Translations under genes and position numbers: made by a program
The notes under the pieces: generated by a model
The model's database searches: none
What the model saw: only the letters and a program-made list of their open reading frames with translations
What the model was told of the DNA's origin: nothing
Source of the DNA: Nannocystis radixulma
GTDB taxonomy: Bacteria; Myxococcota_A; Polyangia; Nannocystales; Nannocystaceae
Reading direction: 5' to 3'
Length of the DNA stretch: 64,000 bases
NCBI RefSeq assembly: GCF_028369095.1
Contig: NZ_JAQNDN010000024.1
Span: forward strand, 693,253-757,252
Shown: piece after piece, positions 5,718 through 36,959 of the stretch
Position numbering within the stretch: the stretch's first letter is position 1
Layout of the letters: the number at the start of each line of letters is the position of its first letter

Positions 5718-5724
5718 GGCGACC

Positions 5725-18996: not shown

Positions 18997-19710
18997 TCAG
19001 ACCGCATGGCTGGGTGGAAACGCTGCGTCGAGGACCGCCTCCCAGTTCACCGGTAGTTGCGGGACGCCGGCGGCGGCGATCCGCGCCGTGAGCTCGTCGC
19101 GGGCGGTGATGCCGAACCTCCGGACGTAGGCCGACAGATACTCCGGGCGGGAGAACAGGAACATCAGATCGGTGAGCTGCATCGGCCGAATCACCAGCAT
19201 CGGGTGCGGTGCTTCGAGCGGGCGATAGTCGGGGTTGTGCAGGCCGGGCTCGAGGCAGCCGGGATAGAATTGGCCGATCATCAGACCCCGGGCGGTGATC
19301 TCGGGCTTCAGCGCCTCTTTCACGGGATCGATGAACCGCGGCCCCCCGTCGTTCGGCAACTCGGGAAATAGCGTCAGGATGGCCCGGAACTCGCGGCCCA
19401 TCCCGGTGGTGGGGAGCTCCGTGGGAAAGCGTGCCACCAGCGCGCGCATCACCGACTCCATGGCGGCGGGGCGGAGCTCGCCCTCGTACACATGAAAGCG
19501 GATCGATCGGAAGCGGTTCAGGCCGGGCTCGACAAAGGGACACACGGACCCCTTGCGACCGATGATCGGGTTCGGCCTGGAGATGAACGTCCTGAGCCAC
19601 GTCCGCACCTCCAGCAGTTGCGCGCGCGCAGCTGCCGGGAGGCCGGCGCTCTGCTCCTCGAGCTGCTCGGCGCATAACAGCCGAGCTTGCGATGGATCTG
19701 TCAATTCCAA
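18997..19710 (-). CDS. Conserved hypothetical protein (237 aa), translationally coupled to the NRPS 3' end
   Basis: Its start overlaps the NRPS stop by 10 nt. Single-Cys motifs GSVCPFVEPGL and GQFYPGC are present. I cannot assign a family by eye. It is a candidate tailoring, precursor-supply or release factor. Confidence 0.5.
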   Translation of the reverse strand: MELTDPSQARLLCAEQLEEQSAGLPAAARAQLLEVRTWLRTFISRPNPIIGRKGSVCPFVEPGLNRFRSIRFHVYEGELRPAAMESVMRALVARFPTELPTTGMGREFRAILTLFPELPNDGGPRFIDPVKEALKPEITARGLMIGQFYPGCLEPGLHNPDYRPLEAPHPMLVIRPMQLTDLMFLFSRPEYLSAYVRRFGITARDELTARIAAAGVPQLPVNWEAVLDAAFPPSHAV

Positions 19711-22700
19711 GACGTGTCCTCCGTTGCGATGAGTCGCCGCAGCGACGAGAGGAACGCTTCCGCGAGCCGCTCGATCGTCGAGGTCTCATGGACAGCGCTG
19801 CTGAAGCTCCAGCCGAGCCGCAGTCGCCCGTCCACCACGATGCAGCTCACCACGAGCTCATGATAAAGCGCCATGTTGGGGCTGATGCTCGTATGCCCCG
19901 TCCCGTCGAATGACCAGGGCGAGCCTGCCTCGTACTGCCCGAGGTAGTTGAACACCACCGGCATCGGTACGGACAGCGACGCGCGTACGTTCGCGTCCGG
20001 ATGTGCATACCGCAGCCAGCCGTATCCGAGGCCCCGGCCGGGCACGGATCGCAGCTGCTCTTTCACGTCCTTCAGCAGCACCGCAGGGTCGCAGCCCGGC
20101 AGCACACTCAGCCACAGCGGAAACAGCGACGAGAACCATCCCATGGTGCGGGACACGTCCAGGTCTGCCACGACAGGCTCGCGACCGTGGTGCTGCAGCG
20201 CCACGCAGACCGTATCTGTCCCGGAGGCGCCGCTCAGCGCGGATGCGAGGGCCGACAGCAGGACGGCGTCGATCTCCGTTCCCTGCGTCGAGCCCACGGC
20301 GCGGAGGAGTGCGCTGGTGTCTGCCGGCGCGAGCTCCACCTCCACCGTGCGGCTGTCGCCGAAGGTCCCCGGCGCGCCGTCACGATCTCGCACGATCGGA
20401 GTCATGCGACGAGCGCACTGCGCCTGCCAGTACTCGAGCTCCTGCGACAGACCGCCGCCGGCGATGAACGCGTGCAGCCGCTCGGACCACTGGCGGAGGG
20501 ACGTCGTCTTGGGCCCGAGCTGCGGCGTCCGCCCGGCGAGGAGCGCATCGCAGGTGTGCTGCAGGTCCTCGCACACGATTCGCCACGACAGGCCGTCCGT
20601 GATGAGGTGGTGCAGGACGAGGACCAGCTGCGCGCCGCCTTCGCCCAGATCCAGCCAGGCAGCGCGGCAGATCGGGCCGCTGGACAGATTCATGCCTCGT
20701 TGCAGCCGCGCCACTGCCTCGGCCGCCGCGGCGTCGCGGGCCGGGCGATCCAACGCCGACAGATCGACCCGCTCGAGCACGATGGTCGCCCCCGCCTCGT
20801 GCTCCTGAACCCACCCGGAGCCGCTGCGACGGTACCGCAACCGCACCGCGTCATGCTGCTCCGCGACGATCCGCAGCGCCTCCGCGGCGATCTCGGGCGA
20901 GAGCGCGGGCGGCGGCGTCCAGCGCATCGCCGGGCAGTAGTGATGCGCGTCCACGGGGTCCCCATCGAGGAACCAGTGCTGGATCGGCGTCAGCGGCACC
21001 GTCCCGCGGACGGCTTCCTGCTCCGCCAACACGGCGCTGTCTCGGCGCACCACCAGCGCCAGCTCGGCCACCGTCTGATGCGTGAACATGTCGCGCGCCG
21101 TGAGATGGAGGCCGGCTCGCTTCGCGCGACCGATCACCTGGATCGCCAGGATCGAGTCCCCCCCGAGCGAGAAGAAGTTGTCGTGGATCCCGAGCGGCGA
21201 GCGCTGCAGCACCGCCGACCACAGCTCGGCGAGCACGCGCTCGACCTCGGTCCGCGGCGCCACGCAGGACGTCTCGACCGCGTCGCGCGTCGCGTCGGGC
21301 GGCGGAAGGGCCTTGCGGTCCACCTTGCCGCTGGGGCTCAGCGGCAGCGCCGTGAGCCGCACGAACAGCGAGGGGACCATGTACGTCGGCAGCGCGGCCC
21401 CGAGGTGCTCGCGCAATGCATCGTCGGTGCATCCGCTGTCGCCGGGCACCACGTACGCGACCAGGCGCCTGTCACCGGGCGCAGGTTCCCACACGACCAC
21501 CGCGCACGCTCGCACGCACGGGTGCGACGACAGCACCGCCTCGATCTCCCCGAGCTCGATGCGGAAGCCGCGGATCTTGACCTGGTGATCGATGCGCCCG
21601 AGAAACTCCAGCGCTCCGTTCGCGTCCCAGCGGACGAGGTCGCCCGTGCGGTACATCCGCGCCCCGGGCACGGCGGAGAACGGGTCCGGTACGAAGCGCT
21701 CCGCCGTCAGTGCGGGCCGGCCCAAATAGCCGCGCGCGAGCCCGTCGCCCCCGATGTACAGCTCGCCCGGGATGCCCACCGGCGTGGGCCTCAGGTTCTT
21801 GTCGACCACGTGGAGCTGCGTGTTGGCGATTCCTCGACCGAGCCGGACGGGGCTCCGTCCGGAGTCGACGCGAGAGAGCGCGGACCAGATCGTCGTCTCG
21901 GTCGGCCCATACACGTTCCACACCGGGGATGCCCTGCGCGCCAGCTCGACCGCCAGATCCGGCGTCATCGCCTCCCCGCCGCACAGCACCTGCAGCGGCC
22001 TCTCACCCGTCCAGCCTGCGTCCAGCACCATGCGCCAGGTCGCCGGCGTCGCCTGCATCATCGTCGCGCGATCGAGGGCGCTCACCAGCGCTTCGCCGTT
22101 GCTCGCGTCGTCGCGGGACGCCAGGTGGATCGCGGCCCCGCGGATCAGGGGCATGAACAGCTCGAGTCCAGCGATGTCGAACGACATCGAGGTCACGGCC
22201 AGCAGCGCGTCCCGGGGCCCGATCCGCGTCTGCTCGGCGAAGGAGTGCAGCAGGTTCGTCAGCGCGGCGTGCAGGATCTGGACGCCCTTGGGCCGCCCCG
22301 TCGAACCCGACGTGTAAAGCACGTAGCTCGCGTGGTCCGGCCCCACGGCGACTGCGAGGGACGTGCGCGGCTGCTGCCACACGGGCGCGCCCGCGTCGAG
22401 GTGCGCGGTCACGAACTCGTGCGGCGGAAGGCTGTCACGCAGGCGCGCCTGCGTGAGCAGCACGGCGGGCCGCGCGTCCGTCAGCATGAATGCCAGCCGC
22501 TCTTGCGGATAGCTCGGGTCGAGCGGCACGTAGGCCCCGCCCGCCTTCAGGATCCCCAACAGCCCCACCACCATCTCGAGCGACCGCTCGACGCACAGCG
22601 CCACCAGCACCTCCGGGCCGACGCCCAGGCCGCGCAGGTGATGGGCCAGCTGGTTCGAGCGCTCGTCGAGCTCCTGGTAGGTCAGCTGCTGTTCGCCGAA

Positions 22701-25700
22701 CACCAGCGCCACCGCGGCCGGCGTCCGCCGGGCCTGCGCCTCGAACAGCTCGTGGATGCACCTGTCTGCGGGATAGGCCGCCGCCGTGTCGTTCCACGCC
22801 GCGAGCTTCGCCTGCTCCGCCGCCGTCAGGAGGTCCAGCTGCGACAGGCGCTTGTCCGGGTGGAGCACCCCGTCCTGTACCAACACCTGCAGGTGCCTGC
22901 CGAGTCGCTCCACCGCGCCGGCGTCCACGCGGCTGGTATCGTAGGTCAGGGAGAATTCGGTCCCCTCCGCGTCATGCAGCACCCCGAGCGCCAGGGCCTG
23001 CTTCGCAGTCACCACGCCGGTGGGCACGCCGTCGAGGAGCGGTGACCAGCCGGCCACGGCGCGGGTCGTCGGCGGCGTCACCTCGAAGAAGGTCACGTCG
23101 AACAGCGGATTCTCGCCGGCCTGCCGCGACAGCCCCTGATCCTGCACGACGACGTCGAACGGCAACGCCTGGTGCTCGTAGGTCTCCAGCGCCGTCCGCC
23201 GCGCCCGGGCGAGCAGCTCGCCGAACGTCGGATCGCCCGAGAGGTCGGTGCGCAGCACCACCGTGTTCGTGAAGAACCCCAGCAGATCGGCCGTGCCCGG
23301 CACCTCGCGGTTCGCAATCACCGCGCCGATCCCGAAGTCCTGCTGGCCGCTGTACCGCGACAGCACCGCCGTAAGGGCGGCATACCAGGCCATGAAGGGT
23401 GTGCATCCGTGGGCCCGCGCCAGCGCCTGCAGCCCGCGGCTCGCCGTCAGCGGGACGCGAAGCGCGACGCTCGCTTCGACGCCGGGGCCGCGCGCCGGAG
23501 CGGCGCGAACGATGGGCAGCTCCAGTCGGGGCACGCGCGCGAGCTTGTCCTTCCAGTAGGCCCGCGAGGCCGCGAAGCCGCCGGTCGTGAGGGCCTCCTG
23601 CTCGGCGCGTGCATGGTCCGCCAACTGGTAGGCGAGCGCCGGCAACTCCGCCGCTTCGCCGCGGCAGCACGCCTCGTACAGGCGCGAGAGCTCGGACAGC
23701 AGCACGCCGCTGGACCACTCGTCGGTGATGATGTGGTGCTGGAGGACGAGCACGACGTGGTGCTCGGCCTCCAGGCGTACGACCAGCACGCGCGTCAGCG
23801 GTCCGGTCGCGAGATCGAAGCGGGCCGCGATTTCGGCCTCCAGGTGCGCGCGCAAGGCGGCTTCCCGCGCCGCCTCCGACAGCGCCGAGACGTCCTCCAC
23901 GCGCAGGGGGATCGACACACTGTCCGCCACCCTTCGCGTCAACACGCCGTCGACCTCGGGATAGGTGGTGCGCAGGATCTCCTGCCGCTCCGCGAGCTGC
24001 TTCACGCTCTGGCGCAGCGCCGGCTCCGAGAGCGCGCCGCGGACGACGAACACGTGCGGGACCTGGTACGACCGCGCCTCGGGCGAGAGCTTGTCGACGA
24101 ACCAGATCCGCCGTTCGGTCCCCGAGAGCGCGTCGTATGCCGGCTCGGCCGCGCCGCGCGGGGAGGGAGAGAGCGCGGGCGCCGGTCGCGTCTCCGTCTC
24201 GGCCAGCAACGCCGCCAGGGCCGCCACCGTCGGCCGCTGCAGCAATGTGGCCAGAGTCAGCCCGAGCCCGAGCCTCGTCTTCACCGCAGACGCGACGCGC
24301 ACCGCCAGGAGCGAGTGGCCGCCGAGCGCGAAGAAATCGTCGTCGATGCCGATGGGCCGCACCTCGAGCAGCTCTTCCCAGATCGCCACGAGGGCGCGCT
24401 CGACCTCGGTCCGGGGCGCCATGAATGTCTCGTCCGCGCCGCGGGTCGCCTCGGGGGAGGGCAGGGCCTTGCGATCGACTTTGCCGTTGGCGGAGAGCGG
24501 CAGCGCGTCGAGGAAGACGAACGCCGACGGGATCATGTAGTCGGGCAGGTCGCTTCGCAGGTGCTCGCGCAGCACGGCCGCCGCGAGCGCGCTGTCCTTC
24601 GCCACCACGTAGGCGACGAGGCGGTTGTTCCCCGGCGTATCCTCTCGCGCGACGACGACGCACGACGCCACCGCGGCGTGCGACGAGAGGGCCGCCTCGA
24701 TCTCGCCGAGCTCGACCCGGAAGCCGCGGATCTTCACCTGATGATCGGCGCGCCCGAGGAACTCGAGCTCGCCGTCCTCGTTCCAGCGCGCGAGGTCGCC
24801 GGTGCAATACATGCGGGCGCCCGGCTCCTTCGCGAACGGATCCGGCACGAACCGCTCGGCCGTCATGGCGGGACGATTTAAATAACCGCGCGCGAGGCCG
24901 ACGCCGGCGAGGTGGATCTCACCGGGCATGCCGATGGGGACCTGCCGCTTCGCCGCGTCGAGCAGGTAGAGGCGAACCCCATGGATGGGCCGGCCGATCG
25001 AGAACCGCTCCGGGCGCGACGGATCGAACCAGGCCTGCGCGGCGAAGATGCTGAACTCGGTGGGGCCATAGGAGTTGAGCACCTGGCGGCCCTCGGCCCA
25101 CTGCGCCACGAGTGAAGGCGGCGTGCTGTCGCCGGCGAGGGTGATGTGGCGCAGCGCCGGCGCGCGGCAGCGGAGCACGCGCAACATCGCGGGCGGGATG
25201 AAGGAGAAGGTGATGGCGCGGTGTTCGAGGCACTCGGCGATGCCCTCGACGGCGTCGTAGGCGTTGCTGGGCAACACGCAGGTTGCGCCGTTGCACAGCG
25301 AGAGCATCCAGTCGACGATCGCCCCATCGAAGGCGATCGCGGCGCTCAAGAGGATGCGATCGCTGGGATGGACGACGATGTGCTGGCGCTGGAACGCGAC
25401 GCGGGCGGCGAGCCCGCGATGCTCGTTGATCACCGGCTTGGGCTTGCCCGTCGAGCCCGAGGTGAACACGACGTAGTTCGCGTGCTCGAGCGTCACGCCG
25501 CTCACGGGCGGCGTGATCGGTTGCGAGGCCCACTGCGCCGCATCGGCATCGAGCCGCACCACCGTCACGCCCGGCGCCGAGAGCCGGACGTCCGCGTGCG
25601 TCAGCAGCACCGGCGCCTCGGCCTCGGCCAGCAGCAGCGAGAGCCGGTCCGGCGGAGACGACGGGTCGAGCGGTACGAACGCGCCTCCCGCCTTCAGGAT

Positions 25701-28700
25701 CGCGACCAGACCCACCACCATGTCGAAGGACCGCTCGACACAAAGGGCCACACGCACCTCGGGCCCGACGCCGAGCGTGCGCAGGTGGTGCGCGAGCCGG
25801 TTGGCTTGCGCCTCGCATTCCCCGTAGCTCAGCTGCTGTCCGTCCTGCTCGAGCGCCACGGCCTGCGGTGCCCTGGCCGCCTGCTCGGCGATCAGCTCAT
25901 GAATGCACCGGGCGGCAGGATCGGTCCGCGGCGTGTCGTTCCACGCCGCGAGCTTCTCGGTCTCCTCGTCGGTCAGCAGATCGAGCTGCGACACTCGTCT
26001 GTCCGGGTGCGCCGCCGCGTCGGTCACCAGAGTCTTCAGGTGCCCGCACAACCGCTCCGCAGCCGTTCGTGAGACGCGTGTGGTGTCGTACAGGACCTCC
26101 ACGACGGTCCCCTCGGCCGCGTGCTGCACGGACACGGCCAGCGCGTTCTTGGCGGTCGCCAGGCCCTGGGGTACTGCGTCGAGGAGCGGCGACCAGCCGG
26201 CTGCGGCGTCGGTCGTCGGCGGCGTCACCTCGAAGAAGGTCACGTCGAACAGCGGATTCTCGCCGGCCTGCCGCGACAGCCCCTGATCCTGCACCACCAC
26301 GTCGAACGGCAGCGCCTGATGCTCATAGGCCTCGAGGGCAGTCCGCCGCGCGCGCGCGAGCAGCTCGCCGAACGTCGGATCGCCCGAGAGGTCGGTCCGC
26401 AGCACCACCGTGTTCGTGAAGAACCCCAGCAGGTCGGCCGTGCCCGGCGCCTCGCGGTTCGCAATCACGGCGCCGAGCCCGAAGTCCTGCTGGCCGCTGT
26501 ACCGCGACAGCACCGCCGTGAGGGCGGCATACCAGGCCATGAAGGGCGTGCATCCGTGGTCGCGCGCGAGCGCTTGCAATGCGCGGCTCGCCTCCAGCGG
26601 GACGCCGAGGGCGACGCTCGCCTCGGGGCCGCGCCCCGGGGCGGTGCGAACGATGGGCAGCTCCAGCCGCGGGGCGCCTGCGAGCCTGTCCTTCCAGTAG
26701 GCCCGCGACGCCGCGAAGCCGCCGGTCGTGAGGGCCTCCTGCTCGGCGCGTGCATGGTCGGCGAACTGGTAGGAGAGCGCCGGCAGCTCCGCCGCTTCGC
26801 CGCGGCAGCACGCCTCGTACAGGCGCGAGAGCTCGGACAGCAGCACGCCGCTGGACCACTCGTCGGTGATGATGTGGTGCTGAAGGACGAGCACGACATG
26901 GTGCTCGGCCTCCAGGCGCACGACCAGCACGCGCGTCAGCGGTCCGCTCGCGAGCTCGAAGGGGACCGCGATCTCGGCCTCCAGGTGGGCGCGCAAGGCG
27001 AATTCTCGCGCCGATTGGGACAGCGCCGAGACGTCCTCCAGGCGCAGCGGGATCGACACGCTGTCCGCCACCCTTCGCGTCAACACGCCGTCGACCTCGG
27101 GATAGGTGGTGCGCAGGATCTCCTGCCGCTCCGCGAGCCGCTTCACGCTCTCGCGCAGCGCCGGCTCCGAGAGCGTCCCGCGGACGACGAACACGTGCGG
27201 GACCTGGTACGACCGCGCCTCGGGCGCGAGCTTGTCGACGAACCAGATCCGCCGCTCGGTCCCCGAGAGACCGTCGTATGCGGGCTCGGCCGCGCCGCGC
27301 GGGGAGGGTGAGAGCGCGGCCACGGGCGCCGGTCGCGTCTCGATCTCGGCGAGCAATGTCGCCAGGGCCGCGACCGTCGGTCGCTGAAGCAATGTGGCCA
27401 GAGTCAGCCCGAGCCCGAGCCTCGCCTTCACCGCCGACACGACGCGCACCGCCAGGAGCGAGTGGCCGCCGAGCGCGAAGAAGTCATCGTCCATGCCGAT
27501 GGGGTGGACCTCGAGCAGCTCTTCCCAGATGGCCACGAGGGCGCGCTCGACGTCGGTCCGCGGCGCCACGAATGTCTCGTCCGCGCCGCGGGTCGCCTCG
27601 GGGGAGGGCAGGGCCTTGCGATCGACCTTGCCGTTGGGGTTCAGCGGGAGCGCGTCGAGGCAGACGTACGCCGAGGGGACCATGTACTCCGGTACCCTCG
27701 CGCCGAGCCACGCTCGCAGCTCGTTCGCCGTGGCGTCGTCGCCGACCACGTAAGCCACCAGCCGCTTGTCGCCGGTCGCGTCTTCCCGGGCCACGACCAC
27801 GCAGTCGCGCACCGACGGGTGCGCTGCGAGTGCGGCCTCGATCTCGCCGAGCTCGATGCGGAAGCCGCGGATCTTGACCTGGTGATCGATGCGGCCGAGG
27901 AACTCGAGCGCGCCGTCGTCGCGAAAGCGCGCCAGGTCGCCGGTGCGATACATGCGTGCGCCGGACTCGGGTGAGAACGGATCGGGCACGAATCGTTCCG
28001 CCGTCAGCCCGGGGCGGCCGAGGTAGCCGCGTGCGAGCTGCACACCCGACAGATACAGTTCTCCGGCGACGCCGACGGGGACGGGGCGAAATGCCGCGTC
28101 GAGCACGTAGGTGCGGGTGTTGTCGATCGGCCGTCCGATCGGCACCGGCCCCGTCTCCTCGGGCCGGCAGGCATGGCTCGTGACGTCGATCGCAGCTTCG
28201 GTCGGGCCGTACAGGTTGTGGAGCGCGCCGCGGCTGCCCGCATACCAGGCCTCCCGCAATTGCCCCGACAACGCCTCGCCGCTGGCGAAGACGTGGCGCA
28301 GCGACCCGCGCTCCTGCGGCTCCGTCGCCGCCAGGAACACGCCGAGCATCGACGGTACGAAATGCGCCACGGTGACGCCGCGCGCCGCGATGAGGGCCGC
28401 GAGGTAGCGCGGATCCTTGTGTCCCTCGGGCGCGGCGATCACCATGCGGGCGCCTTCCAGGAGCGGCCACCACAGCTCCCAGCCCGAGACGTCGAACGAC
28501 AGCGGCGTCTTCTGCAAGATCGCGTCGCTCGCGTTGAGCCCGTAGGCCCGCTGCATCCAGCGCAGGCGGTTGTAGAGCCCGCGATGGGTGTTGAGCACGC
28601 CCTTGGGCCGCCCCGTCGAGCCCGACGTGTAGATGACGTAGATCGCGTGATCGGGCCCGACGTGGACCGCAGGGGACGTGCGCGGCAGGTGCTGCCACGC

Positions 28701-31700
28701 GGGCGCATCGAGAAGCACGGTCACGACCGCGTGCGCCGGAAGGCCGTCTTGCAGTCGTGCCTGCGTGAGCAGCACGGCGGGTCGGGCGTCCGTCAGCATG
28801 AAGGCCAGGCGCTCGCGCGGATAGCTCGGGTCGAGCGGCACGTAGGCGCCGCCCGCCTTGAGGATCGCCAGCAGCCCCACGAGCATCTCGAGCGACCGCT
28901 CGACGCACAGCCCGACCAGCACCTCCGGCCCCACGCCCAGCCCGCGGAGGTGATGGGCCAGCTGGTTCGAGCGTTCGTCGAGCTCGCGGTACGTCAGCTG
29001 CTTCTCACCGAACACCAGCGCCACCGCGTCCGGCGTCCGCGCGACCTGCTCCTCGAACAGCTCGTGGATGCACCTCGCCGGGGGATACGCCACCGCCGTG
29101 TCGTTCCACGCCGCGAGCTGACGCAACTCCGCCGCCGTCAACAGGCCGAGCTCCGCCAGGCGCCTGTCCGGGTGCGCGACCATGTCGAGGAGGACGGTCC
29201 GCAGGTGCCCCCACAGCCGCTCGACGTCTTCGCCGCGAAGCGCTGCGGGTTCCCACATCCAGCGCAGGTCGATGGTCGTTCCAGCCGCCACCGTGATGGC
29301 GAGCGGGTAGCTCGTCTGCTCGAACGCCTGGAAGTTCTCGATCGGCAGGACCTCGGCCTGCTGCGCCGCTTCGTCCACCGGGTAGTTCTCGAACACGAGG
29401 AGCGTGTCGAACAGCGCGCGACCTCCACCCACCGCGCTCGCGCGCTGCACCTCGTACAGCGGGGTCGCCTCGTGGACGCGCAGCTCGACCTGCTCGGCTT
29501 GCAGCCGCTGCAGCCATTCGACCACGCCCTCCGAGCCGGACCACCGGGCCCGCAGCGGCAGCGTGTTGATGAACAGGCCCACCATCCGCTCGATGCCGCG
29601 GATCGGCGCGCTGCGACCTGCCGTCGTCATGCCGAAGACGACATCCGTCCGCCCCGTGATACGGCCGAGGATCTGCGCGAGCGCCCCTTGCACCACCGTG
29701 TTCAGGGTCAGCCCGTGCCGCCGCGCGAAGGCCGTGACCGCCTCGGTCTCGGCCGCGGTCAGCGAGGTGTCACGCTGTGCGTGCTCCCGCGTCGCCTCCG
29801 CGGGCGGCGGGAACGGCAGCCGCGTCGGCTCCTCGACGCCGTCCAGGTACTCGGCGAAGAACGCCGACGACGCCCTGTGGTCTCGCGTCGCGAGCCAGGC
29901 GATGTACCGCTCGTAGGCCACCGGCTCCGGCAGCGCGAGCGGTCGGCCGCCGCGGTGGGCAGCATAGGCGGCCTGCAGCTCTCCGAGCACGACCGGCATC
30001 GACCAGCCGTCGGCCAGGATGTGATGCGTCGTCTTCAGCATCCACGTCCGGCCTCCGGGCATGCGCACGAGCACGACCCGCGCCAGCGGGGCCCGCCCGA
30101 AATCGAAGCCGGCCGCCCGTTCCTCGCGCCGCAGGGCCTCCCACCGCGCCTCCGCCTCGACCGCGTCCAGCGCGGACCAGTCGTGCGTCGGCATCGCGAA
30201 GGCGACGCTCCGCCGCACCACCTGCAGCGGCTCCGGGACGCCCTGCCACAAGAAAGACGTCCGATACACCGCATGACGCGCGAGCACGGTCTTCCACGCG
30301 CTCTCGAGCGCCGCGGCGTCCACGTCGCCTCCCAGCTGCAGCGCGAGCTGGACGGTGTAGGTCGGCGAGTCCGGCTCGTTCAGGGCGTGGAACAACAGCC
30401 CCGCCTGTAGCGGCGAGAGCGGGTAGACGCTCTCCACGTCGCGCGAGGCCGCGAACAGTCCGTCCAGGGCCTGCTGCCCGAGCCGCGCGAGCGGGAAGTC
30501 CGAGGGCGTGTAGCCGAACGCCTCGCTCGACGTGCAGTGAGCGATGAGTCGCCGCAGCGAGGCGACGAACCGAGCGGCGAGCCGCTCCACCGTCGCGCTG
30601 TCGTGGGTCGCCGAGCTGTACGTCCATTCGAACCGCAGCCGTCCTTGCCACACGCCGCCGTTCACCGCCAGCGCGTGCCACAGCTCCATCCGCGAGCTCG
30701 TGGTCCTCCCCGTCGACTCCGCCGCCGGTCCGAGCATCCCCCGGCCCTGCGCCTCCATGTCGAACTGCCCGAGGTAATTGAACACCACCGGCGGATCCAC
30801 CGCGAGTGCGGCGCGCACCGCCTCGTCCGGGTGCGCGTAGCGCAGCCAGCCGTATCCGAAGCCCCGGTTCGGCACCGATCGAAGCTGTTCCTTGACCCCC
30901 TTCAGCAGCGCAGCAGGATCGTCGGTCCCCGGAACGGTCAGCCACACCGGAAACATCGACGTGAACCACCCGACGGTGCGGGACACATCGACGTCCTCGA
31001 TCAGCGTCTCGCGCCCATGCCCTTCGAGCGTGACGCACACCGTGTCCGTCGTGCAGAACCCGCTCAGCGCCGCTGCGAGCGCCGAGAGCAAGACATCATT
31101 GATCTCGGTGCGGTAGGCCGCGCTCACGTCGTGAAGGAGCGCCCGGGTCTCTGCCTCGGACAGCTCCACGTCCACCGTGCGGCTGTCTCCGACCGTGCCC
31201 GGCGCCGCCTCGTGGTCCCGCGGCAGCGGCGTGATGCCGCGCGCGCATTGAGCTCGCCAGAATCCGAGCTCCTGCGACAGGCCGCCGGCAGCGACGAATG
31301 CGTGCAGCCGCTCCGACCACTGTCGGAACGAGGTCGTCTTGGCCGCGAGCTCCGGCGTGCGTCCAGCCAGCAGGGCCTCGCAGGCGCGCTCGAGGTCCTC
31401 GTGCAAGATCCGCCACGACACGCCGTCGACCACGAGGTGGTGCACGACGAGCAGCAGCCGCGCGCCCTCCTCGCCCAGATCCAGCCACGCGGCGCGGGCC
31501 ACCGGGCCCGCGGACAGCGACAGGCCGCTCTGCAATGCGTCCGCCGACACCTCCACGGCCGCCCTGCGTACGTCGGGCGGCACCGTCGAGAGGTCCATCC
31601 GCTCGAGCGGCAGCGCGACCTCTTCCGCGTGGCTCTGCACCCACCCGGATTCGGTATGATCATACCGCAATCGCAGCGCGTCGTGCTGCCGCAATACGAC

Positions 31701-34700
31701 CTGCAGCGCCCCGGCCACCAGCGCGGGCGACAGCGCGGACGACGGCGTCCACATACAGGCCTGATTGAAGTGGTGCGCCTCTTCGGGGTTCGTGCCCAGG
31801 AACCACTGCTGGCTCGGCGTCAGCAAGGCCGCGCCGGTCACCGCCTGCTCGGCCACGGCTGCGCTCGATCTGCGCGCCACCTGCACCAGCTCCGCGACCG
31901 TCTGGTGCATGAACATGTCGCGCACCGTCACGTGCAAGCCGGCTCGCTTGGCCCGCCCGACCACCTGGATCGCCAGGATCGAATCTCCGCCCAGCGAGAA
32001 GAAGTTGTCGTGGATCCCCACCGACGAGGCGCGCAGCACCTCCGACCACACCTCCGCGAGCGCTCGCTCCGCTTCCGTGCGTGGCGCGGCGTACGAGGTC
32101 TCCGCGGCCTGCCGCGTGTCTTTTGGAACAGGCAGGGCCTTGCGATCGACCTTGCCGTTGGCGGACAGCGGCAGCGCGTCGAGGAAGACGAACGCCGACG
32201 GGAGCATGTAGTCGGGCAGGTCGCGTCGCAGGTGCTCGCGCAGCGAGCCCACGGTGAGCGCGCCATCCTTCGCCACCACGTAGGCGACGAGGCGCGGGCT
32301 CCCCGGGGTGTCCTCTCGCGCGACGACGACGCACGACGCCACCGCGGCGTGTGACGAGAGGGCCGCCTCGACCTCGCCGAGCTCGACACGGAAGCCGCGG
32401 ATCTTGACCTGATGATCGGCGCGGCCGAGGAACTCGAGCTCGCCGTCCTCGTTCCAGCGCGCGAGATCGCCGGTGCAATACATGCGGGCGCCGGGCTCCT
32501 TCGCGAAGGGGTCCGGCACGAATCGCTCGGCCGTCATGGCGGGCCGACTCAAATAACCGCGCGCCAGGCCGACGCCGGCGAGGTGGATCTCACCGGGCAT
32601 GCCGATGGGGACCTGCCGCTTCGCGGCGTCGAGCAGGTAGAGGCGAACCCCATGAATGGGCCGGCCGATCGAGAACCGCTCCGGGCGCGACGGATCGAAC
32701 CAGGCCTGCGCGGCGAAGATGCTGAATTCGGTGGGGCCATAGGAATTGAGGACCTGACGGCCCTTGGCCCACTGAGCCACGAGTGCGGGCGGCGTGCTGT
32801 CGCCGGCGAGGGTGATGTGGCGCAGCGCCGGGGCGCGGCAGCGGAGCGCGCGCAACATCGCGGGCGGGATGAACGAGAAGGTGATGGCGCGGTGTTCGAG
32901 GCACTCGGCGATGCCCTCGACGGCGTCGTAGGCGTTGCTGGGCAACACGCAGGTGGCGCCGTTGCACAGCGAGAGCATCCAATCGACGATCGCGCCGTCG
33001 AAGGCGACCGCGGCGCTGAAGAGGATGCGATCGCTGGGATGGACGACGATGTGCTGGCGCTGGAACGCGACGCGGGCGGCGAGCCCGCGATGCTCGTTGA
33101 TCACGGGCTTGGGCTTGCCCGTCGAGCCCGAGGTGAACACGACGTAGTTCGCGTGCTCGAGCGTCACGCCGCTCGCGGGCGGCGTGATGGGTTGCGAAGC
33201 CCACTGCGCCACATCGACGTCGAGCCGCACCACCGTCACGCCCGGCGCCGAGAGCCCGACGTCCGCGTGCGTCAGCAGCACCGGCGCCTCGGCCTCGGTC
33301 AGCAGCAGCGAGAGCCTGTCCGGCGGAGACGACGGGTCGAGCGGCACGAACGCGCCTCCCGCCTTCAGGATCGCGGCCAGACCCACCACCATGTCGAAGG
33401 ACCGCTCGACACAAAGGGCCACGCGGACCTCGGGCCCGACGCCGAGCGTGCGCAGGTGGTGCGCGAGCTGGTTGGCCTGCGCCTCGAATTCCCCGTAGCT
33501 CAGCTGCTGCCCGTCCTGCTCGAGCGCGACGGCCTGCGGTGCCCTGACCGCCTGCTCGGCGATCAATTCGTGGATGCACCGGGCGGCAGGATCGATCGGC
33601 GGCGTGTCGTTCCACGCCGTGAGCTTCTCGGTCTCCTCGTCGGTCAGCAGCTCCAACTGCGACACCCGCCTGTCCGGGTGCGCAGCCGCGTCAATCACCA
33701 GAGTCTGCAAATGCCCGCACAGGCGCTCCGCCGCCGTTCGCGACACGCGCGTCGTGTCGTACAGGACCTCGACGACGGTCCCCTCGACCGTGTGCTGCAC
33801 GGTCACGGCCAGCGCGTTCTTGGCGGTCGTCACGCCCTGCGGCACCGCCCCGAGCCGCGGTGACCAGCCGGCCGCTGCCGTCGGCGGCGTCACCTCGAAG
33901 AAGGTCACGTCGAACAGCGGATTCTCGCCGGCCTGCCGCGACAGCCCCTGATCCTGCACGACGACGTCGAACGGCAGCGCCTGATGCTCATAGGCATCGA
34001 GGGCAGTCCGCCGCGCCCGCGCGAGCAGCTCGTCGAACGTCGGATCGCCCGAGAGGTCGGTCCGCAGCACGACGGTGTTGGTGAAGAACCCCAGCATCGC
34101 CTCGGTCCCGACGATCTGGCGATTCGCGACCACCGCGCCGAGCCCGAAGTCCTGCTGGCCGCTGTACCGCGACAGCACCGCCGTGAGGGCGGCATACCAG
34201 GCCATGAAAGGGGTCGCGGCATGTTCGTGGGCGAGCGCCTGCAGTTGGCGGCTCGTCTCCGGCGATAGCCGGAGCGAGACGTGCCCTTCGGGTCCCGAGA
34301 CCGCTCCCGCAGCGGGAGCGACGATCGAGAGGTCGAGCCGCGGTACGTCGGAGAGGGCCTCCTTCCAGTGGGCCCGAGACGCCGCGAGCCCGTCGCCCGC
34401 GAGCGCCGACCGCTCTGCGTGCGCATAATCCGAGTACTGGTAGGCGAGGGCAGGCAGAGCGAGCGTCTCCCCGCGGCACGACGCTTCGTACAGCGACGAG
34501 AGCTCCGCGAGCAGCAGCCCCCAGGACCACTCGTCGGTGATGATGTGGTGCTGATGCACGACGACGACGTGCCGGTCCTCGGCTGTCTTTACGGCCAGGA
34601 CACGGGTCAGCGGCCCACGCTCCAGGTCGAAGCGGCCCTTCACCTCCGCGGCGAGCATCGCCTGCAACGCCGCATCGCGCTCCGCGGCGGGCAGCGACGA

Positions 34701-36959
34701 GACGTCCTCCACGCGGATCGGGATCTGCACGTCGTCGGACACTTCTCGCCGCGGCGTGCCGTCCACCTCCGGATAGGTCGTGCGAAGGATCTGGTGGCGC
34801 AATGCCAGCGCGCGCACGCTCGCCTCGAGCGCCGGAGCAGAGAGCGCGGACGCCACCTCGAACACGTGCGGGATCTGGTACGACCTCGCCTGGGGCGACA
34901 GCTTTTCAAGGAACCAGATCCGCCGCTCCGTGCCCGACAGGCCCACGAACGGCGCCTCGCCGTCCGCTCGCGGCGAGAGGCCGATCTGCGGCCGCTCCGC
35001 TCTCGTGTCCCAGAGAGCCGCCAGCGCCTCGATCGTCGGATTGCGAAACAGCGCGGCCAGGCTCGGCGCGCCCCCGAGTTGCGCCTGGATGGCGGATACG
35101 ACGCGAAAGGCGAGGAGCGAATGACCACCCAGCAGAAAGAAATTGTCGCTGACGCCGATGGGGCGGACCTCGAGCAGCTCTTCCCAGATGGCCACGAGGG
35201 CGCGCTCGACGTCGGTCCGCGGGGCCACGTAGGTCTCTGCCGAACCGCGGGTCGTTTCGGGGGAGGGCAGGGCCTTGCGATCGACCTTGCCGTTGGGGTT
35301 CAGCGGCAGGGCGTCGAGGCAGACGAACGCCGAGGGGACCATGTACTCGGGCACCCTCGCGCCGAGCCACGTTCGCAGCTCGTTCGCAGTGGCGTCGTCG
35401 CCGACCACGTAGGCCACCAGCCGCTTGTCGCCGGCCGCGTCTTCCCGGGCCACGACCACGCAGTCGCGCACCGAAGGGTACGCCGCGAGTGCGGCCTCGA
35501 TCTCGCCGAGCTCGATGCGGAAGCCGCGGATCTTGACCTGGTGGTCGATGCGGCCGAGGAACTCGAGCGCGCCGTCGTTGCGAAAGCGCGCCAGGTCGCC
35601 GGTGCGATACATGCGTGCGCCGGACTCGGGCGCGAACGGATCGGGCACGAATCGCTCTGCCGTCAGCCCGGGGCGGCCGAGGTAGCCGCGTGCGAGCTGC
35701 ACACCCGCCAGATACAGCTCTCCGGCGACGCCGACGGGGACGGGGCGAAATGCCGCGTCGAGCACGTAGGTGCGGGTGTTGTCGATCGGCCGTCCGATCG
35801 GCACCGGCCCCGTCTCCTCGGCCCGGCAGGCGTGGCTCGTCACGTCGATCGCGGCTTCGGTCGGACCGTAGAGGTTGTGGAGCTCGCCGCGGCTGCCCGC
35901 ATACCAGGCCGCCCGCAATTGCCCCGACAACGCCTCGCCGCTGGCGAAGACGTGGCGCAGCGACGCGCGCTCCCGCGGCTCCGTCGCCGCCAGGAACACG
36001 CCGAGCATCGACGGTACGAAATGCGCCACGGTGACGCCGCGTGCCGCGATGAGGGCCGCGAGGTAGCGCGGGTCCTTGTGTCCCTCGGGCGCGGCGATCA
36101 CCATGCGGGCGCCCTCGAGCAGCGGCCACCACAGCTCCCAGCCGGACACGTCGAACGACAGCGGCGTCTTCTGCAGGATCGCGTCGCTCGCGTTGAGGCC
36201 GTAGGCCCGCTGCATCCAGCGCAGGCGGTTGTAGAGCCCGCGATGGGTGTTGAGCACGCCCTTGGGCCGCCCCGTCGAGCCCGACGTGTAGATGACGTAG
36301 ATCGCGTGATCCGGGCCGACGTGGACCGCAGGGGACGTACGCGGCAGGTGCTGCCACGCGGGCGCATCGAGATGCACGACCTCCACCTCGTGCGCCGGAA
36401 GGCTGTCACGCAGGCGTTCCTGTGTGAGCAGCACGGCGGGCCGTGCGTCCGTCAGCATGAAGGCCAGGCGCTCGCGCGGATAGGTGGGGTCGAGCGGCAC
36501 GTAGGCGCCGCCCGCCTTGAGGATCGCCAGCAGCCCCACGAGCATCTCGAGCGACCGCTCGACGCACAGCCCGACCAGCACCTCCGGCCCCACGCCCAGC
36601 CCGCGGAGATGATGGGCCAGCTGGTTCGAGCGCTCGTCGAGCTCGCGGTACGTCAGCTGCTGGTCGCCGAACACCAGCGCCACGGTGTCCGGCGTCCGCG
36701 CGGCCTGGTCCGCGAACAACTCGTGGATGCACCTCGCCGGGGGATACGCCACCGCCGTGTCGTTCCACACCGCGAGCTGACGCAGCTCGTCCGAGGCGAG
36801 CAGCGGCAGGTGCCCGATCGGGCTGTTCGAACCGGCCACGGCGGCCCAGAGGAGCACCTCCCCAGCGTCGGGGCTGCCTGCATCCTGCTGCGCCGCGACA
36901 TTCTGCTCCGACCTCGGCTCGATCCCCCGAACGTCCCGGCTCTCGTCGTGCATGCTCAT
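19701..36959 (-). CDS. Non-ribosomal peptide synthetase, 5 modules, 5752 aa: A-T | C-A-T-E | C-A-T | C-A-T | C-A-T-E, with no TE domain
   Basis: Five A domains carry the motif series LTYxEL, SGSTGxPKG, FDxS, NxYGPTE, GELxIGG, YRTGDL, GRxDxQVKIRGxRIELGEIE and NGKVDRKAL. Five T domains are present (LGGHSL x3, LGGDSI x2). Four C domains have HHxxxDxWS; three read HHIITDEWS (LCL-type) and one, after the E domain, reads HHILADGWS (DCL-type). Two E domains start PLTP(S/I)QxWF and carry HHLVVDGVSW or HHLITDGLSW. Stachelhaus-style codes by hand alignment to GrsA: A1 and A3 give DVWHFSLIDK (Ser); A2 and A4 give DGVFTASIFK (unassigned, nearest to Tyr-like DGTITAEVAK); A5 gives DILQLGVIWK (Gly). An AGGAA RBS lies upstream of the start at 36959. 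Confidence 0.95.
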   Translation of the reverse strand: MSMHDESRDVRGIEPRSEQNVAAQQDAGSPDAGEVLLWAAVAGSNSPIGHLPLLASDELRQLAVWNDTAVAYPPARCIHELFADQAARTPDTVALVFGDQQLTYRELDERSNQLAHHLRGLGVGPEVLVGLCVERSLEMLVGLLAILKAGGAYVPLDPTYPRERLAFMLTDARPAVLLTQERLRDSLPAHEVEVVHLDAPAWQHLPRTSPAVHVGPDHAIYVIYTSGSTGRPKGVLNTHRGLYNRLRWMQRAYGLNASDAILQKTPLSFDVSGWELWWPLLEGARMVIAAPEGHKDPRYLAALIAARGVTVAHFVPSMLGVFLAATEPRERASLRHVFASGEALSGQLRAAWYAGSRGELHNLYGPTEAAIDVTSHACRAEETGPVPIGRPIDNTRTYVLDAAFRPVPVGVAGELYLAGVQLARGYLGRPGLTAERFVPDPFAPESGARMYRTGDLARFRNDGALEFLGRIDHQVKIRGFRIELGEIEAALAAYPSVRDCVVVAREDAAGDKRLVAYVVGDDATANELRTWLGARVPEYMVPSAFVCLDALPLNPNGKVDRKALPSPETTRGSAETYVAPRTDVERALVAIWEELLEVRPIGVSDNFFLLGGHSLLAFRVVSAIQAQLGGAPSLAALFRNPTIEALAALWDTRAERPQIGLSPRADGEAPFVGLSGTERRIWFLEKLSPQARSYQIPHVFEVASALSAPALEASVRALALRHQILRTTYPEVDGTPRREVSDDVQIPIRVEDVSSLPAAERDAALQAMLAAEVKGRFDLERGPLTRVLAVKTAEDRHVVVVHQHHIITDEWSWGLLLAELSSLYEASCRGETLALPALAYQYSDYAHAERSALAGDGLAASRAHWKEALSDVPRLDLSIVAPAAGAVSGPEGHVSLRLSPETSRQLQALAHEHAATPFMAWYAALTAVLSRYSGQQDFGLGAVVANRQIVGTEAMLGFFTNTVVLRTDLSGDPTFDELLARARRTALDAYEHQALPFDVVVQDQGLSRQAGENPLFDVTFFEVTPPTAAAGWSPRLGAVPQGVTTAKNALAVTVQHTVEGTVVEVLYDTTRVSRTAAERLCGHLQTLVIDAAAHPDRRVSQLELLTDEETEKLTAWNDTPPIDPAARCIHELIAEQAVRAPQAVALEQDGQQLSYGEFEAQANQLAHHLRTLGVGPEVRVALCVERSFDMVVGLAAILKAGGAFVPLDPSSPPDRLSLLLTEAEAPVLLTHADVGLSAPGVTVVRLDVDVAQWASQPITPPASGVTLEHANYVVFTSGSTGKPKPVINEHRGLAARVAFQRQHIVVHPSDRILFSAAVAFDGAIVDWMLSLCNGATCVLPSNAYDAVEGIAECLEHRAITFSFIPPAMLRALRCRAPALRHITLAGDSTPPALVAQWAKGRQVLNSYGPTEFSIFAAQAWFDPSRPERFSIGRPIHGVRLYLLDAAKRQVPIGMPGEIHLAGVGLARGYLSRPAMTAERFVPDPFAKEPGARMYCTGDLARWNEDGELEFLGRADHQVKIRGFRVELGEVEAALSSHAAVASCVVVAREDTPGSPRLVAYVVAKDGALTVGSLREHLRRDLPDYMLPSAFVFLDALPLSANGKVDRKALPVPKDTRQAAETSYAAPRTEAERALAEVWSEVLRASSVGIHDNFFSLGGDSILAIQVVGRAKRAGLHVTVRDMFMHQTVAELVQVARRSSAAVAEQAVTGAALLTPSQQWFLGTNPEEAHHFNQACMWTPSSALSPALVAGALQVVLRQHDALRLRYDHTESGWVQSHAEEVALPLERMDLSTVPPDVRRAAVEVSADALQSGLSLSAGPVARAAWLDLGEEGARLLLVVHHLVVDGVSWRILHEDLERACEALLAGRTPELAAKTTSFRQWSERLHAFVAAGGLSQELGFWRAQCARGITPLPRDHEAAPGTVGDSRTVDVELSEAETRALLHDVSAAYRTEINDVLLSALAAALSGFCTTDTVCVTLEGHGRETLIEDVDVSRTVGWFTSMFPVWLTVPGTDDPAALLKGVKEQLRSVPNRGFGYGWLRYAHPDEAVRAALAVDPPVVFNYLGQFDMEAQGRGMLGPAAESTGRTTSSRMELWHALAVNGGVWQGRLRFEWTYSSATHDSATVERLAARFVASLRRLIAHCTSSEAFGYTPSDFPLARLGQQALDGLFAASRDVESVYPLSPLQAGLLFHALNEPDSPTYTVQLALQLGGDVDAAALESAWKTVLARHAVYRTSFLWQGVPEPLQVVRRSVAFAMPTHDWSALDAVEAEARWEALRREERAAGFDFGRAPLARVVLVRMPGGRTWMLKTTHHILADGWSMPVVLGELQAAYAAHRGGRPLALPEPVAYERYIAWLATRDHRASSAFFAEYLDGVEEPTRLPFPPPAEATREHAQRDTSLTAAETEAVTAFARRHGLTLNTVVQGALAQILGRITGRTDVVFGMTTAGRSAPIRGIERMVGLFINTLPLRARWSGSEGVVEWLQRLQAEQVELRVHEATPLYEVQRASAVGGGRALFDTLLVFENYPVDEAAQQAEVLPIENFQAFEQTSYPLAITVAAGTTIDLRWMWEPAALRGEDVERLWGHLRTVLLDMVAHPDRRLAELGLLTAAELRQLAAWNDTAVAYPPARCIHELFEEQVARTPDAVALVFGEKQLTYRELDERSNQLAHHLRGLGVGPEVLVGLCVERSLEMLVGLLAILKAGGAYVPLDPSYPRERLAFMLTDARPAVLLTQARLQDGLPAHAVVTVLLDAPAWQHLPRTSPAVHVGPDHAIYVIYTSGSTGRPKGVLNTHRGLYNRLRWMQRAYGLNASDAILQKTPLSFDVSGWELWWPLLEGARMVIAAPEGHKDPRYLAALIAARGVTVAHFVPSMLGVFLAATEPQERGSLRHVFASGEALSGQLREAWYAGSRGALHNLYGPTEAAIDVTSHACRPEETGPVPIGRPIDNTRTYVLDAAFRPVPVGVAGELYLSGVQLARGYLGRPGLTAERFVPDPFSPESGARMYRTGDLARFRDDGALEFLGRIDHQVKIRGFRIELGEIEAALAAHPSVRDCVVVAREDATGDKRLVAYVVGDDATANELRAWLGARVPEYMVPSAYVCLDALPLNPNGKVDRKALPSPEATRGADETFVAPRTDVERALVAIWEELLEVHPIGMDDDFFALGGHSLLAVRVVSAVKARLGLGLTLATLLQRPTVAALATLLAEIETRPAPVAALSPSPRGAAEPAYDGLSGTERRIWFVDKLAPEARSYQVPHVFVVRGTLSEPALRESVKRLAERQEILRTTYPEVDGVLTRRVADSVSIPLRLEDVSALSQSAREFALRAHLEAEIAVPFELASGPLTRVLVVRLEAEHHVVLVLQHHIITDEWSSGVLLSELSRLYEACCRGEAAELPALSYQFADHARAEQEALTTGGFAASRAYWKDRLAGAPRLELPIVRTAPGRGPEASVALGVPLEASRALQALARDHGCTPFMAWYAALTAVLSRYSGQQDFGLGAVIANREAPGTADLLGFFTNTVVLRTDLSGDPTFGELLARARRTALEAYEHQALPFDVVVQDQGLSRQAGENPLFDVTFFEVTPPTTDAAAGWSPLLDAVPQGLATAKNALAVSVQHAAEGTVVEVLYDTTRVSRTAAERLCGHLKTLVTDAAAHPDRRVSQLDLLTDEETEKLAAWNDTPRTDPAARCIHELIAEQAARAPQAVALEQDGQQLSYGECEAQANRLAHHLRTLGVGPEVRVALCVERSFDMVVGLVAILKAGGAFVPLDPSSPPDRLSLLLAEAEAPVLLTHADVRLSAPGVTVVRLDADAAQWASQPITPPVSGVTLEHANYVVFTSGSTGKPKPVINEHRGLAARVAFQRQHIVVHPSDRILLSAAIAFDGAIVDWMLSLCNGATCVLPSNAYDAVEGIAECLEHRAITFSFIPPAMLRVLRCRAPALRHITLAGDSTPPSLVAQWAEGRQVLNSYGPTEFSIFAAQAWFDPSRPERFSIGRPIHGVRLYLLDAAKRQVPIGMPGEIHLAGVGLARGYLNRPAMTAERFVPDPFAKEPGARMYCTGDLARWNEDGELEFLGRADHQVKIRGFRVELGEIEAALSSHAAVASCVVVAREDTPGNNRLVAYVVAKDSALAAAVLREHLRSDLPDYMIPSAFVFLDALPLSANGKVDRKALPSPEATRGADETFMAPRTEVERALVAIWEELLEVRPIGIDDDFFALGGHSLLAVRVASAVKTRLGLGLTLATLLQRPTVAALAALLAETETRPAPALSPSPRGAAEPAYDALSGTERRIWFVDKLSPEARSYQVPHVFVVRGALSEPALRQSVKQLAERQEILRTTYPEVDGVLTRRVADSVSIPLRVEDVSALSEAAREAALRAHLEAEIAARFDLATGPLTRVLVVRLEAEHHVVLVLQHHIITDEWSSGVLLSELSRLYEACCRGEAAELPALAYQLADHARAEQEALTTGGFAASRAYWKDKLARVPRLELPIVRAAPARGPGVEASVALRVPLTASRGLQALARAHGCTPFMAWYAALTAVLSRYSGQQDFGIGAVIANREVPGTADLLGFFTNTVVLRTDLSGDPTFGELLARARRTALETYEHQALPFDVVVQDQGLSRQAGENPLFDVTFFEVTPPTTRAVAGWSPLLDGVPTGVVTAKQALALGVLHDAEGTEFSLTYDTSRVDAGAVERLGRHLQVLVQDGVLHPDKRLSQLDLLTAAEQAKLAAWNDTAAAYPADRCIHELFEAQARRTPAAVALVFGEQQLTYQELDERSNQLAHHLRGLGVGPEVLVALCVERSLEMVVGLLGILKAGGAYVPLDPSYPQERLAFMLTDARPAVLLTQARLRDSLPPHEFVTAHLDAGAPVWQQPRTSLAVAVGPDHASYVLYTSGSTGRPKGVQILHAALTNLLHSFAEQTRIGPRDALLAVTSMSFDIAGLELFMPLIRGAAIHLASRDDASNGEALVSALDRATMMQATPATWRMVLDAGWTGERPLQVLCGGEAMTPDLAVELARRASPVWNVYGPTETTIWSALSRVDSGRSPVRLGRGIANTQLHVVDKNLRPTPVGIPGELYIGGDGLARGYLGRPALTAERFVPDPFSAVPGARMYRTGDLVRWDANGALEFLGRIDHQVKIRGFRIELGEIEAVLSSHPCVRACAVVVWEPAPGDRRLVAYVVPGDSGCTDDALREHLGAALPTYMVPSLFVRLTALPLSPSGKVDRKALPPPDATRDAVETSCVAPRTEVERVLAELWSAVLQRSPLGIHDNFFSLGGDSILAIQVIGRAKRAGLHLTARDMFTHQTVAELALVVRRDSAVLAEQEAVRGTVPLTPIQHWFLDGDPVDAHHYCPAMRWTPPPALSPEIAAEALRIVAEQHDAVRLRYRRSGSGWVQEHEAGATIVLERVDLSALDRPARDAAAAEAVARLQRGMNLSSGPICRAAWLDLGEGGAQLVLVLHHLITDGLSWRIVCEDLQHTCDALLAGRTPQLGPKTTSLRQWSERLHAFIAGGGLSQELEYWQAQCARRMTPIVRDRDGAPGTFGDSRTVEVELAPADTSALLRAVGSTQGTEIDAVLLSALASALSGASGTDTVCVALQHHGREPVVADLDVSRTMGWFSSLFPLWLSVLPGCDPAVLLKDVKEQLRSVPGRGLGYGWLRYAHPDANVRASLSVPMPVVFNYLGQYEAGSPWSFDGTGHTSISPNMALYHELVVSCIVVDGRLRLGWSFSSAVHETSTIERLAEAFLSSLRRLIATEDTSWN
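24371..36842. repeat. Two ~4.8-kb near-identical direct repeats inside the NRPS gene, plus a third partial copy of the C domain
   Basis: A1-T1-C2-A2 (about 32040-36842) and A3-T3-C4-A4 (about 24371-29174) are ~96% identical at protein level. Duplicated six-frame ORFs recur at a 7665-7671-nt offset, for example 32549 vs 24878 and 33905 vs 26240. C5 repeats C4 at a 3147-nt offset (23093 vs 26240). Confidence 0.85.

Follow-up and report, generated by a model that had tools for sequence, protein, structure and literature searches.

Mosaic repeats in a five-module peptide synthetase gene of Nannocystis radixulma, probably maintained by recurrent intragenic gene conversion

The synthetase gene and its internal repeats

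We analysed a 64,000-nucleotide (nt) stretch of the genome of Nannocystis radixulma (contig NZ_JAQNDN010000024.1; hereafter the window, with a G+C content of 71.7%), which carries a gene for a large non-ribosomal peptide synthetase (NRPS) whose internal direct repeats are the subject of this report. The gene is a single open reading frame (ORF) in which Pfam matched AMP-binding, Condensation and PP-binding domains. Its core motifs mark five adenylation (A) domains, five carrier serines (T domains) and six HHxxxD domains of the condensation (C) type, and its repeated C-A-T modules with the A3 and A10 motifs, the GGxS carrier serine and HHxxxD are those of a canonical multimodular NRPS. The domains are ordered A1-T1-C2-A2-T2-E2-C3-A3-T3-C4-A4-T4-C5-A5-T5, followed by a terminal domain resembling an epimerisation (E) domain, and the N-terminus of the protein itself carries a remnant of a C-A linker. 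The core motifs of epimerisation domains are HHxxxDxxSW, EGHGRE, RTVGWF, PxxGxGYG and FNYLG; E2 (amino acids (aa) ~1700-2140) has all canonical epimerisation motifs (HHLVVDGVSW, EGHGRE, RTVGWF, FNYLG), and C3, which directly follows it, shares only ~31% aa identity with C2, C4 and C5.

Self-comparison with blastn aligned positions 24303-29129 with 31971-36788 at an offset of 7668 nt (4856 aligned columns, 6073 bits, 88.0% identity), and the repeat families are confined to 19.7-36.7 kb within the window. An earlier note on this DNA had described two 4.8-kb direct repeats of A-T-C-A units, ~96% identical and ~7.67 kb apart, together with a further copy of C4 in C5. The repeats exist at the offset described, but their overall identity is lower than had been thought. 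The unit is A-T-C-A, as T2 and T4 are only 54.5% identical in nt, and since the gene lies on the minus strand, what the note called modules 1-2 is the higher-coordinate copy.

The match between the copies is a mosaic. Profiles of 100 nt and 90 nt resolved two blocks with 90-99% identity on either side of a ~1.0-kb middle block with 51-83%, and a maximum-chi2 partition with two breakpoints, near aa 600 and 920, gave identities of 93.5%, 68.5% and 92.7%, the middle value being that of a 0.96-kb T-C segment. This block structure is beyond chance (chi2 435 versus a maximum of 21 in 100 permutations). Domain by domain, A1 and A3 are 95.2% identical in nt (94.5% in aa) and A2 and A4 93.8% (93.5%), and the end of C2 with A2 is 92-98% identical to the end of C4 with A4; the corresponding values are 75% (70%) for T1-T3 and 78% (72%) for C2-C4. 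The longest exact run common to the two copies is 122 nt.

A second match, at an offset of ~3147 nt, joins the A3 C-terminal subdomain, T3 and C4 (aa 3092-3597) to the equivalent part of A4-T4-C5 (aa 4143-4646), with 89-98% identity per profile window. T3 and T4 are 91.4% and C4 and C5 88.4% identical in nt, so that C5 is nearer to C4 than C2 is; the third C copy of the earlier note is therefore real and extends further than C5 itself. Both offsets, 7668 (= 3 x 2556) and 3147, are multiples of three, so unequal recombination would give in-frame three- or four-module enzymes. The parts of the gene are as follows.

19701..36959, minus strand: NRPS gene, a single ORF of 17,259 nt and 5752 aa
35100..36797, minus strand: Block I copy 1, the C-A-linker remnant, A1 and the first half of T1 (aa ~55-620); 90-100% nt identity per profile window to copy 2
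34218..35099, minus strand: non-homogenised core, copy 1, the rest of T1, the C2 N-lobe and the start of the C-lobe (aa ~621-914)
32127..34217, minus strand: Block II copy 1, the C-terminal part of C2 (from just before GFFTNT) and A2 to just after A10 (aa ~915-1611)
29139..32126, minus strand: unique sequence that separates the repeats, comprising T2 of the GGDSI type, E2 with canonical epimerase motifs, and C3
27441..29138, minus strand: Block I copy 2, the C3-A3 linker, A3 and the first half of T3 (aa ~2608-3173); A1-A3 95.2% nt, bootstrap 200/200, synonymous rate (dS) 0.117
26169..27686, minus strand: Block III copy 1, the A3 C-terminal subdomain, T3 and most of C4 (aa 3092-3597); 89-98% per profile window to copy 2
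24459..26552, minus strand: Block II copy 2, the C-terminal part of C4 and A4 (aa ~3470-4167); A2-A4 93.8% nt, bootstrap 198-200/200, dS 0.139
23022..24533, minus strand: Block III copy 2, the A4 C-terminal subdomain, T4 and most of C5 (aa 4143-4646); the third C copy of the earlier note
19701..23021, minus strand: the last part of C5, then A5 with a Gly-like code, T5 and the E-like terminal domain with QHHGRE

The two copies of Block II are mostly 86-99% identical per profile window; over the first 45 residues their proteins are almost the same, but nt identity is about 80%. All three blocks measure 1.5-2.1 kb at ~90-95% identity.

Orthologous loci and clustering by genome

Relatives were sought with the unique E2-C3 segment as anchor and 10-kb flanks that span the whole gene, taking one genome per species, and five loci were returned.

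L001, Nannocystis exedens DSM 71: 92% aa identity to the anchor, complete locus
L005, N. bainbridge: 89% aa identity to the anchor, complete locus
L002, L003 and L004, three 'Polyangium sp.' genomes: 81-82% aa identity to the anchor; L003 and L004 complete

The five-genome comparisons below comprise the window and the four complete loci. All four complete loci share the five-module layout, with inter-module spacing kept within ~10 residues, and three- or four-module variants were found in none of them. A search of 5.8 billion proteins with the E2-C3 segment returned only the L002 fragment as a close match, all other matches listed being <=48% identical; the proteins listed were all <=~1650 aa long and hence uninformative on module number.

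Within each genome, A1 and A3 are 95.2-97.6% identical and A2 and A4 93.7-99.4%, against 76-92% for positional orthologues between genomes (multiple alignments). Every within-genome pair, A1/A3 as well as A2/A4, forms a clade in neighbour-joining trees, with bootstrap support of 198-200/200. Synonymous rates (Nei-Gojobori) follow the same division, with paralogue dS of 0.016-0.19 and orthologue dS of 0.21-0.29 between the window and N. exedens and 0.64-0.75 between the window and L003/L004; the ratio of non-synonymous to synonymous rates (dN/dS) between copies is ~0.2. Position 239 of the specificity code co-varies in A2 and A4, reading V/V in Nannocystis and I/I in L003/L004.

Other parts of the same gene behave differently. 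The core left out of the blocks shows 59-76% identity per profile window to T3-C4 in all five genomes; T1-C2(N) forms an orthologous clade (200/200) and differs from T3-C4(N) by dS 0.57-0.94, and the split of the T1-C2 segment (TC1) from T3-C4 and T4-C5 (TC3 and TC4) is older than the species compared. Across the five genomes, fixed paralogue-specific residues number 33 in TC1/TC3 and 0 in A1/A3, A2/A4 and TC3/TC4. Two pairs that serve as internal controls, T2/T5 and E2/terminal E, track the species tree. TC3 and TC4 are 88.7-95.3% identical within a genome versus 78-84% between Nannocystis and Polyangium orthologues, and their clustering by genome is strong in L003 and L004 (185-200/200).

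The edges of the tracts are identical in all five genomes. Block I opens in the C-A linker, ~10 residues ahead of its WNDT motif (ELRQLAxWNDT), and closes in the T domain at FFxLGGHSLLA. The start of Block II falls within the C-lobe, immediately ahead of GFFTNT and ~110 residues past HHxxxD, and its end just beyond A10 (NGKVDRKALP). Block III begins in the A8-A10 region, spans T and stops ~65 residues short of the next WNDT.

Two observations stand beside these patterns. In N. exedens, A2 and A4 are 99.4% identical, with a 1028-nt exact run and a dS of 0.016, which, given the 122-nt longest run in the window, indicates a putative conversion much more recent there than in the window's strain. 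The N-terminal ~160 aa of A5 (about 22282-22862, minus strand) are 83-91% identical to A1/A3 before identity drops to ~50%; this segment is orthologous within Nannocystis, and in L003/L004 its closer match is the A1/A3 of the same genome, not the A5 of Nannocystis, a pattern that suggests an older or rarer partial conversion.

Probable gene conversion and its alternatives

We interpret the repeats as paralogous segments of a long-established five-module NRPS that have probably been kept near-identical by recurrent intragenic gene conversion, and we put the probability of this reading at about 0.9. The layout common to the complete relatives, together with the grouping of paralogues by genome, implies that the duplication predates the species and that the A blocks were homogenised independently in each lineage. 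Several points weigh against this reading. Support for the clustering of TC3/TC4 by genome is weak in the window, N. exedens and N. bainbridge (56-132/200). The trees are neighbour-joining trees with Jukes-Cantor distances only, and conversion is deduced indirectly, by phylogeny, from five genomes, one per species.

The earlier note read the repeats as the sign of a very recent module duplication that left near-perfect copies. On this view an A-T-C-A unit was duplicated in tandem in this strain, and the copies have not yet diverged. The 94-95% identity of the A domains and the in-frame offset agree with such an event. Yet the five modules are present in the four complete orthologous loci at dS up to ~0.75, while the paralogues cluster by genome, and one recent event would leave even identity along the unit, whereas its T-C core is 68.5% identical, with dS 0.57-0.94, and orthologously conserved. 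These results contradict a very recent duplication, which we regard as very unlikely, and the description of the units as near-perfect duplicates fails in their T-C core.

The same note warned that collapse of the repeats in a short-read assembly might have hidden the true module number. If the copies had been collapsed, chimeric or cross-polished, their number or the mosaic itself would be unreal. Short-read assemblies do break at such repeats: L002 (Polyangium sp. 15x6) is a 4108-nt contig that runs only from the end of A2 through T2, E2 and C3 into the start of A3, its ends fall inside the A2/A4 and A1/A3 homogenised blocks, and this is the pattern expected of a short-read assembler halting at a repeat. 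The window itself might stem from short reads, which leaves room for the same concern. However, module order and spacing agree in four independent assemblies, of which N. exedens (an 11.27-Mb 'utg0' contig) and N. bainbridge (a 4.5-Mb '000000F arrow' contig) appear from contig names and sizes to be long-read assemblies. The 17.3-kb ORF is intact and the differences between the copies look evolutionary (dN/dS ~0.2). An error in copy number is thus unlikely here, because the spacing is conserved in four relatives and the longest exact run is short enough for even 150-nt paired reads to separate the copies; as an explanation of the whole pattern, an artefact is highly improbable. Where counts could be compared, the module number did not differ: it was five in every complete locus. 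The note's further idea of a recombination hotspot stands in so far as the repeats are recombinationally active, but the expansion or contraction it foresaw is not seen among these relatives.

Independent parallel events in each lineage, whether repeated duplication or the repeated import of A domains from an external donor cluster in place of the resident ones, would likewise group paralogues by genome, and A-domain replacement via recombination is common in NRPSs. Such a history would, however, need at least five identical events per block, each with identical edges, and the protein search yielded no close external homologue, the next best matches listed reaching no more than 48% identity. 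Copy-to-copy conversion is the simplest explanation for the co-variation of position 239 in the two copies, and parallel events seem to us scarcely probable. Purifying selection for the same substrate specificity alone, without recombination, can be dismissed as next to impossible: A1/A3 and A2/A4 must indeed activate the same substrates and have identical codes, but their synonymous sites are homogenised too (paralogue dS 0.02-0.19 versus 0.2-0.75 for orthologues), which, like the 1028-nt exact run in N. exedens, protein-level selection could not produce.

If recurrent gene conversion is the cause, non-reciprocal homologous recombination between the direct repeats, presumably by a RecA-type mechanism, would homogenise the copies in three families of tracts. 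In the first, the C-A linker, the A domain and the first half of T would be exchanged, keeping A1 like A3; in the second, the distal C-lobe and A up to A10, keeping C2/A2 like C4/A4; and in the third, the A C-terminal subdomain, T and most of C, with slower homogenisation of A3/T3/C4 and A4/T4/C5. The edges would be set by selection for identical Ser and X specificity (X being the residue activated by A2 and A4) together with loss of homology. Functionally differentiated segments would have fallen under the identity needed for recombination and so evolve as ordinary orthologues: the T1-C2 donor side, T2 as opposed to T4, and E2 as opposed to the terminal E-like domain. It may be that the donor of C2, in the unconverted core, is the aminoacyl starter on T1 and the donors of C4 and C5 are peptidyl, and that T2 (GGDSI) serves an E domain and T4 (GGHSL) a C domain. 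At ~68% identity, such segments have probably become too different for homologous recombination.

Concerted evolution of NRPS and polyketide synthase (PKS) domains by internal recombination is established (Medema et al. 2014, PMC4256081; also PMC9205934), with examples that include the A and C domains of daptomycin, CDA and A54145, syringopeptin, and the KS/AT domains of the rapamycin family; in the model of Figure 4 in PMC4256081, functionally diverged domains escape homogenisation. As in those systems, the paralogous domains here branch by genome rather than by position, and diverged domains escape. Unlike in that study, the comparison draws on strict orthologues from five species, with synonymous rates and tract edges at residue level; homogenisation reaches no more than a portion of each module, and the setting is an uncharacterised cluster in a myxobacterium. 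The phenomenon is thus already known, and the locus is a new, well-resolved example of it in an orphan cluster.

The FFxxGGxS motif of the T domain has been described as a natural NRPS recombination breakpoint, the XUT site (bioRxiv 10.1101/2022.12.02.518901). Block I ends at exactly such a breakpoint, in FFxLGGHSLLA, although the homogenised unit is linker-A-half-T and not Tp1-C-A-Tp2. Its start, ~10 residues before WNDT, coincides with the C-A linker, where the XU fusion region reportedly lies. Block II differs from both XU and XUT in that it starts within the C-lobe, about 110 residues past HHxxxD.

The blocks also resemble GRINS, which are rare in proteobacteria and mostly found in PKS modules (Nivina et al. 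2021, PMC8256042), in being duplicated regions of >500 bp and >80% identity in an assembly-line gene and in their tie to gene conversion. The definition of GRINS adds mean absolute GC and TA skews that both exceed 0.15 (150-nt windows) and are usually correlated (PMC8256042). Here the mean absolute GC skew was 0.071-0.093 and the mean absolute TA skew 0.099-0.147, both below the threshold, with r from -0.13 to 0.37, and the non-repeated parts had the same skews as the repeats; we therefore rejected membership in this class.

It follows that high identity between modules does not date their duplication, because gene conversion resets the clock. The locus offers a natural example, well controlled by strict orthologues, by synonymous rates and by unconverted domains of the same gene, of which parts of an NRPS module tolerate overwriting without loss of function and where junctions are tolerated; it also illustrates a locus type that breaks short-read assemblies yet keeps a stable module number. 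The tract edges, fixed across five species, could be those of natural, selection-tested swap units (linker-A-half-T and distal-C-lobe-A) and, if so, could guide NRPS engineering.

Specificity codes, predicted product and neighbouring genes

Specificity codes were read by alignment to a fragment of GrsA, with positions 330/331 adjusted by eye for a one-column gap; a motif-anchored Stachelhaus extraction was set aside, as an indel mis-registered position 278. A1 and A3 share the Ser-like code DVWHFSLIDK and A2 and A4 the code DGVFTASIFK, to which no substrate was assigned and whose small pocket residues suggest a bulky side chain. The A5 code, DIL(A/Q)LGVIWK, is Gly-like and ambiguous at position 278, either A or the neighbouring Q, which would give the canonical Gly code. 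Since the codes are pairwise identical, the assembly line encodes Ser-X twice; the iterative Ser-X logic proposed earlier holds in this sense, but the order is colinear and does not involve reuse of modules. Of the two X positions, only the first has a canonical E domain after it. The codes, combined with the location of E2 behind module 2, predict the chain L-Ser - D-X - L-Ser - L-X - Gly.

The terminal domain (19701-21032, minus strand, aa ~5310-5752) is E-like, with PIQHWF, HHLITDGLSW and FNYLG; it follows the Gly-like A5 and, in all five genomes, reads QHHGRE in place of EGHGRE, with Gln at the position of the catalytic Glu. Within the NRPS no thioesterase (TE) or R domain was found, and near the synthetase no thioesterase, MbtH-like gene or further NRPS gene. 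A search of the literature for known Nannocystis synthetases of Ser-rich pentapeptides returned nothing relevant.

The genes that adjoin the synthetase are these.

18997..19710, minus strand: gene of the DUF6875 / cytochrome-P422 family (Pfam PF21780, E = 5e-50)
37498..39441, minus strand: multicopper oxidase gene, upstream of the NRPS (Pfam Cu-oxidase_2 and Cu-oxidase_3)
17322..18956, plus strand: ABC transporter with fused transmembrane and nucleotide-binding domains (TMD-NBD; Pfam ABC_membrane and ABC_tran)

The DUF6875 gene has a TTG start that overlaps the NRPS stop codon. Cytochrome P422 enzymes (DUF6875) have been described as Trp N1/C6/C7-hydroxylases, often in NRPS clusters, with the motifs RxGxVCP (heme ligand), Rx(M/L)x3Dx2F and MxGxF (bioRxiv 10.64898/2025.12.11.692455). 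The window's protein carries RKGSVCP, RPMQLTDLMF and MIGQF, so that the heme motif, SBR1 and SBR3 match exactly; its SBR2 reads D-x2-K-x3-K, with K where Q/H is described, and the protein is a predicted member of the family. A search of PDB sequences with this protein gave no match. The gene also lies directly downstream of the NRPS in N. exedens and N. bainbridge, whereas in L003/L004 an ABC-transporter-like protein is encoded in its place, in the ~450 nt of downstream sequence available. The locus points to an orphan myxobacterial cluster in which an NRPS is paired with a recently described family of Trp hydroxylases.

The multicopper oxidase gene adjoins the NRPS in all four complete loci (74-85% aa identity by tblastn), in inverted orientation in L003/L004, and its product may be a tailoring enzyme. 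The ABC transporter gene is convergent with the NRPS/DUF6875 pair, their 3' ends facing, and its product is a possible exporter.

With low confidence, X could be (hydroxy)tryptophan supplied by the coupled P422 enzyme. The product may then be a perhaps undescribed Ser - D-(hydroxy)Trp - Ser - (hydroxy)Trp - Gly, and the peptide might be oxidatively cross-linked and released by the E-like terminal domain with its Glu-to-Gln exchange. The combined proposal, that the tract edges delimit swap units and that the NRPS, P422 and multicopper oxidase make an undescribed, perhaps cross-linked peptide, is speculative and on balance rather unlikely.

Elsewhere in the window, a three-gene set at 889-6867 on the minus strand encodes an ABC protein, an HlyD-family protein and an ABC transporter that bears a C39 peptidase domain, a combination typical of the export of bacteriocins or of ribosomally synthesised and post-translationally modified peptides (RiPPs). 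A 72-nt tandem repeat in 3.5 copies (92% matches) lies at 41859-42108, upstream of an M16 peptidase gene and inside a 768-aa ORF (39880-42186, minus strand) for which no Pfam match was found; the repetitive, Pro/Ala/Arg-rich N-terminus of this ORF is probably a mere translation of the tandem repeat.

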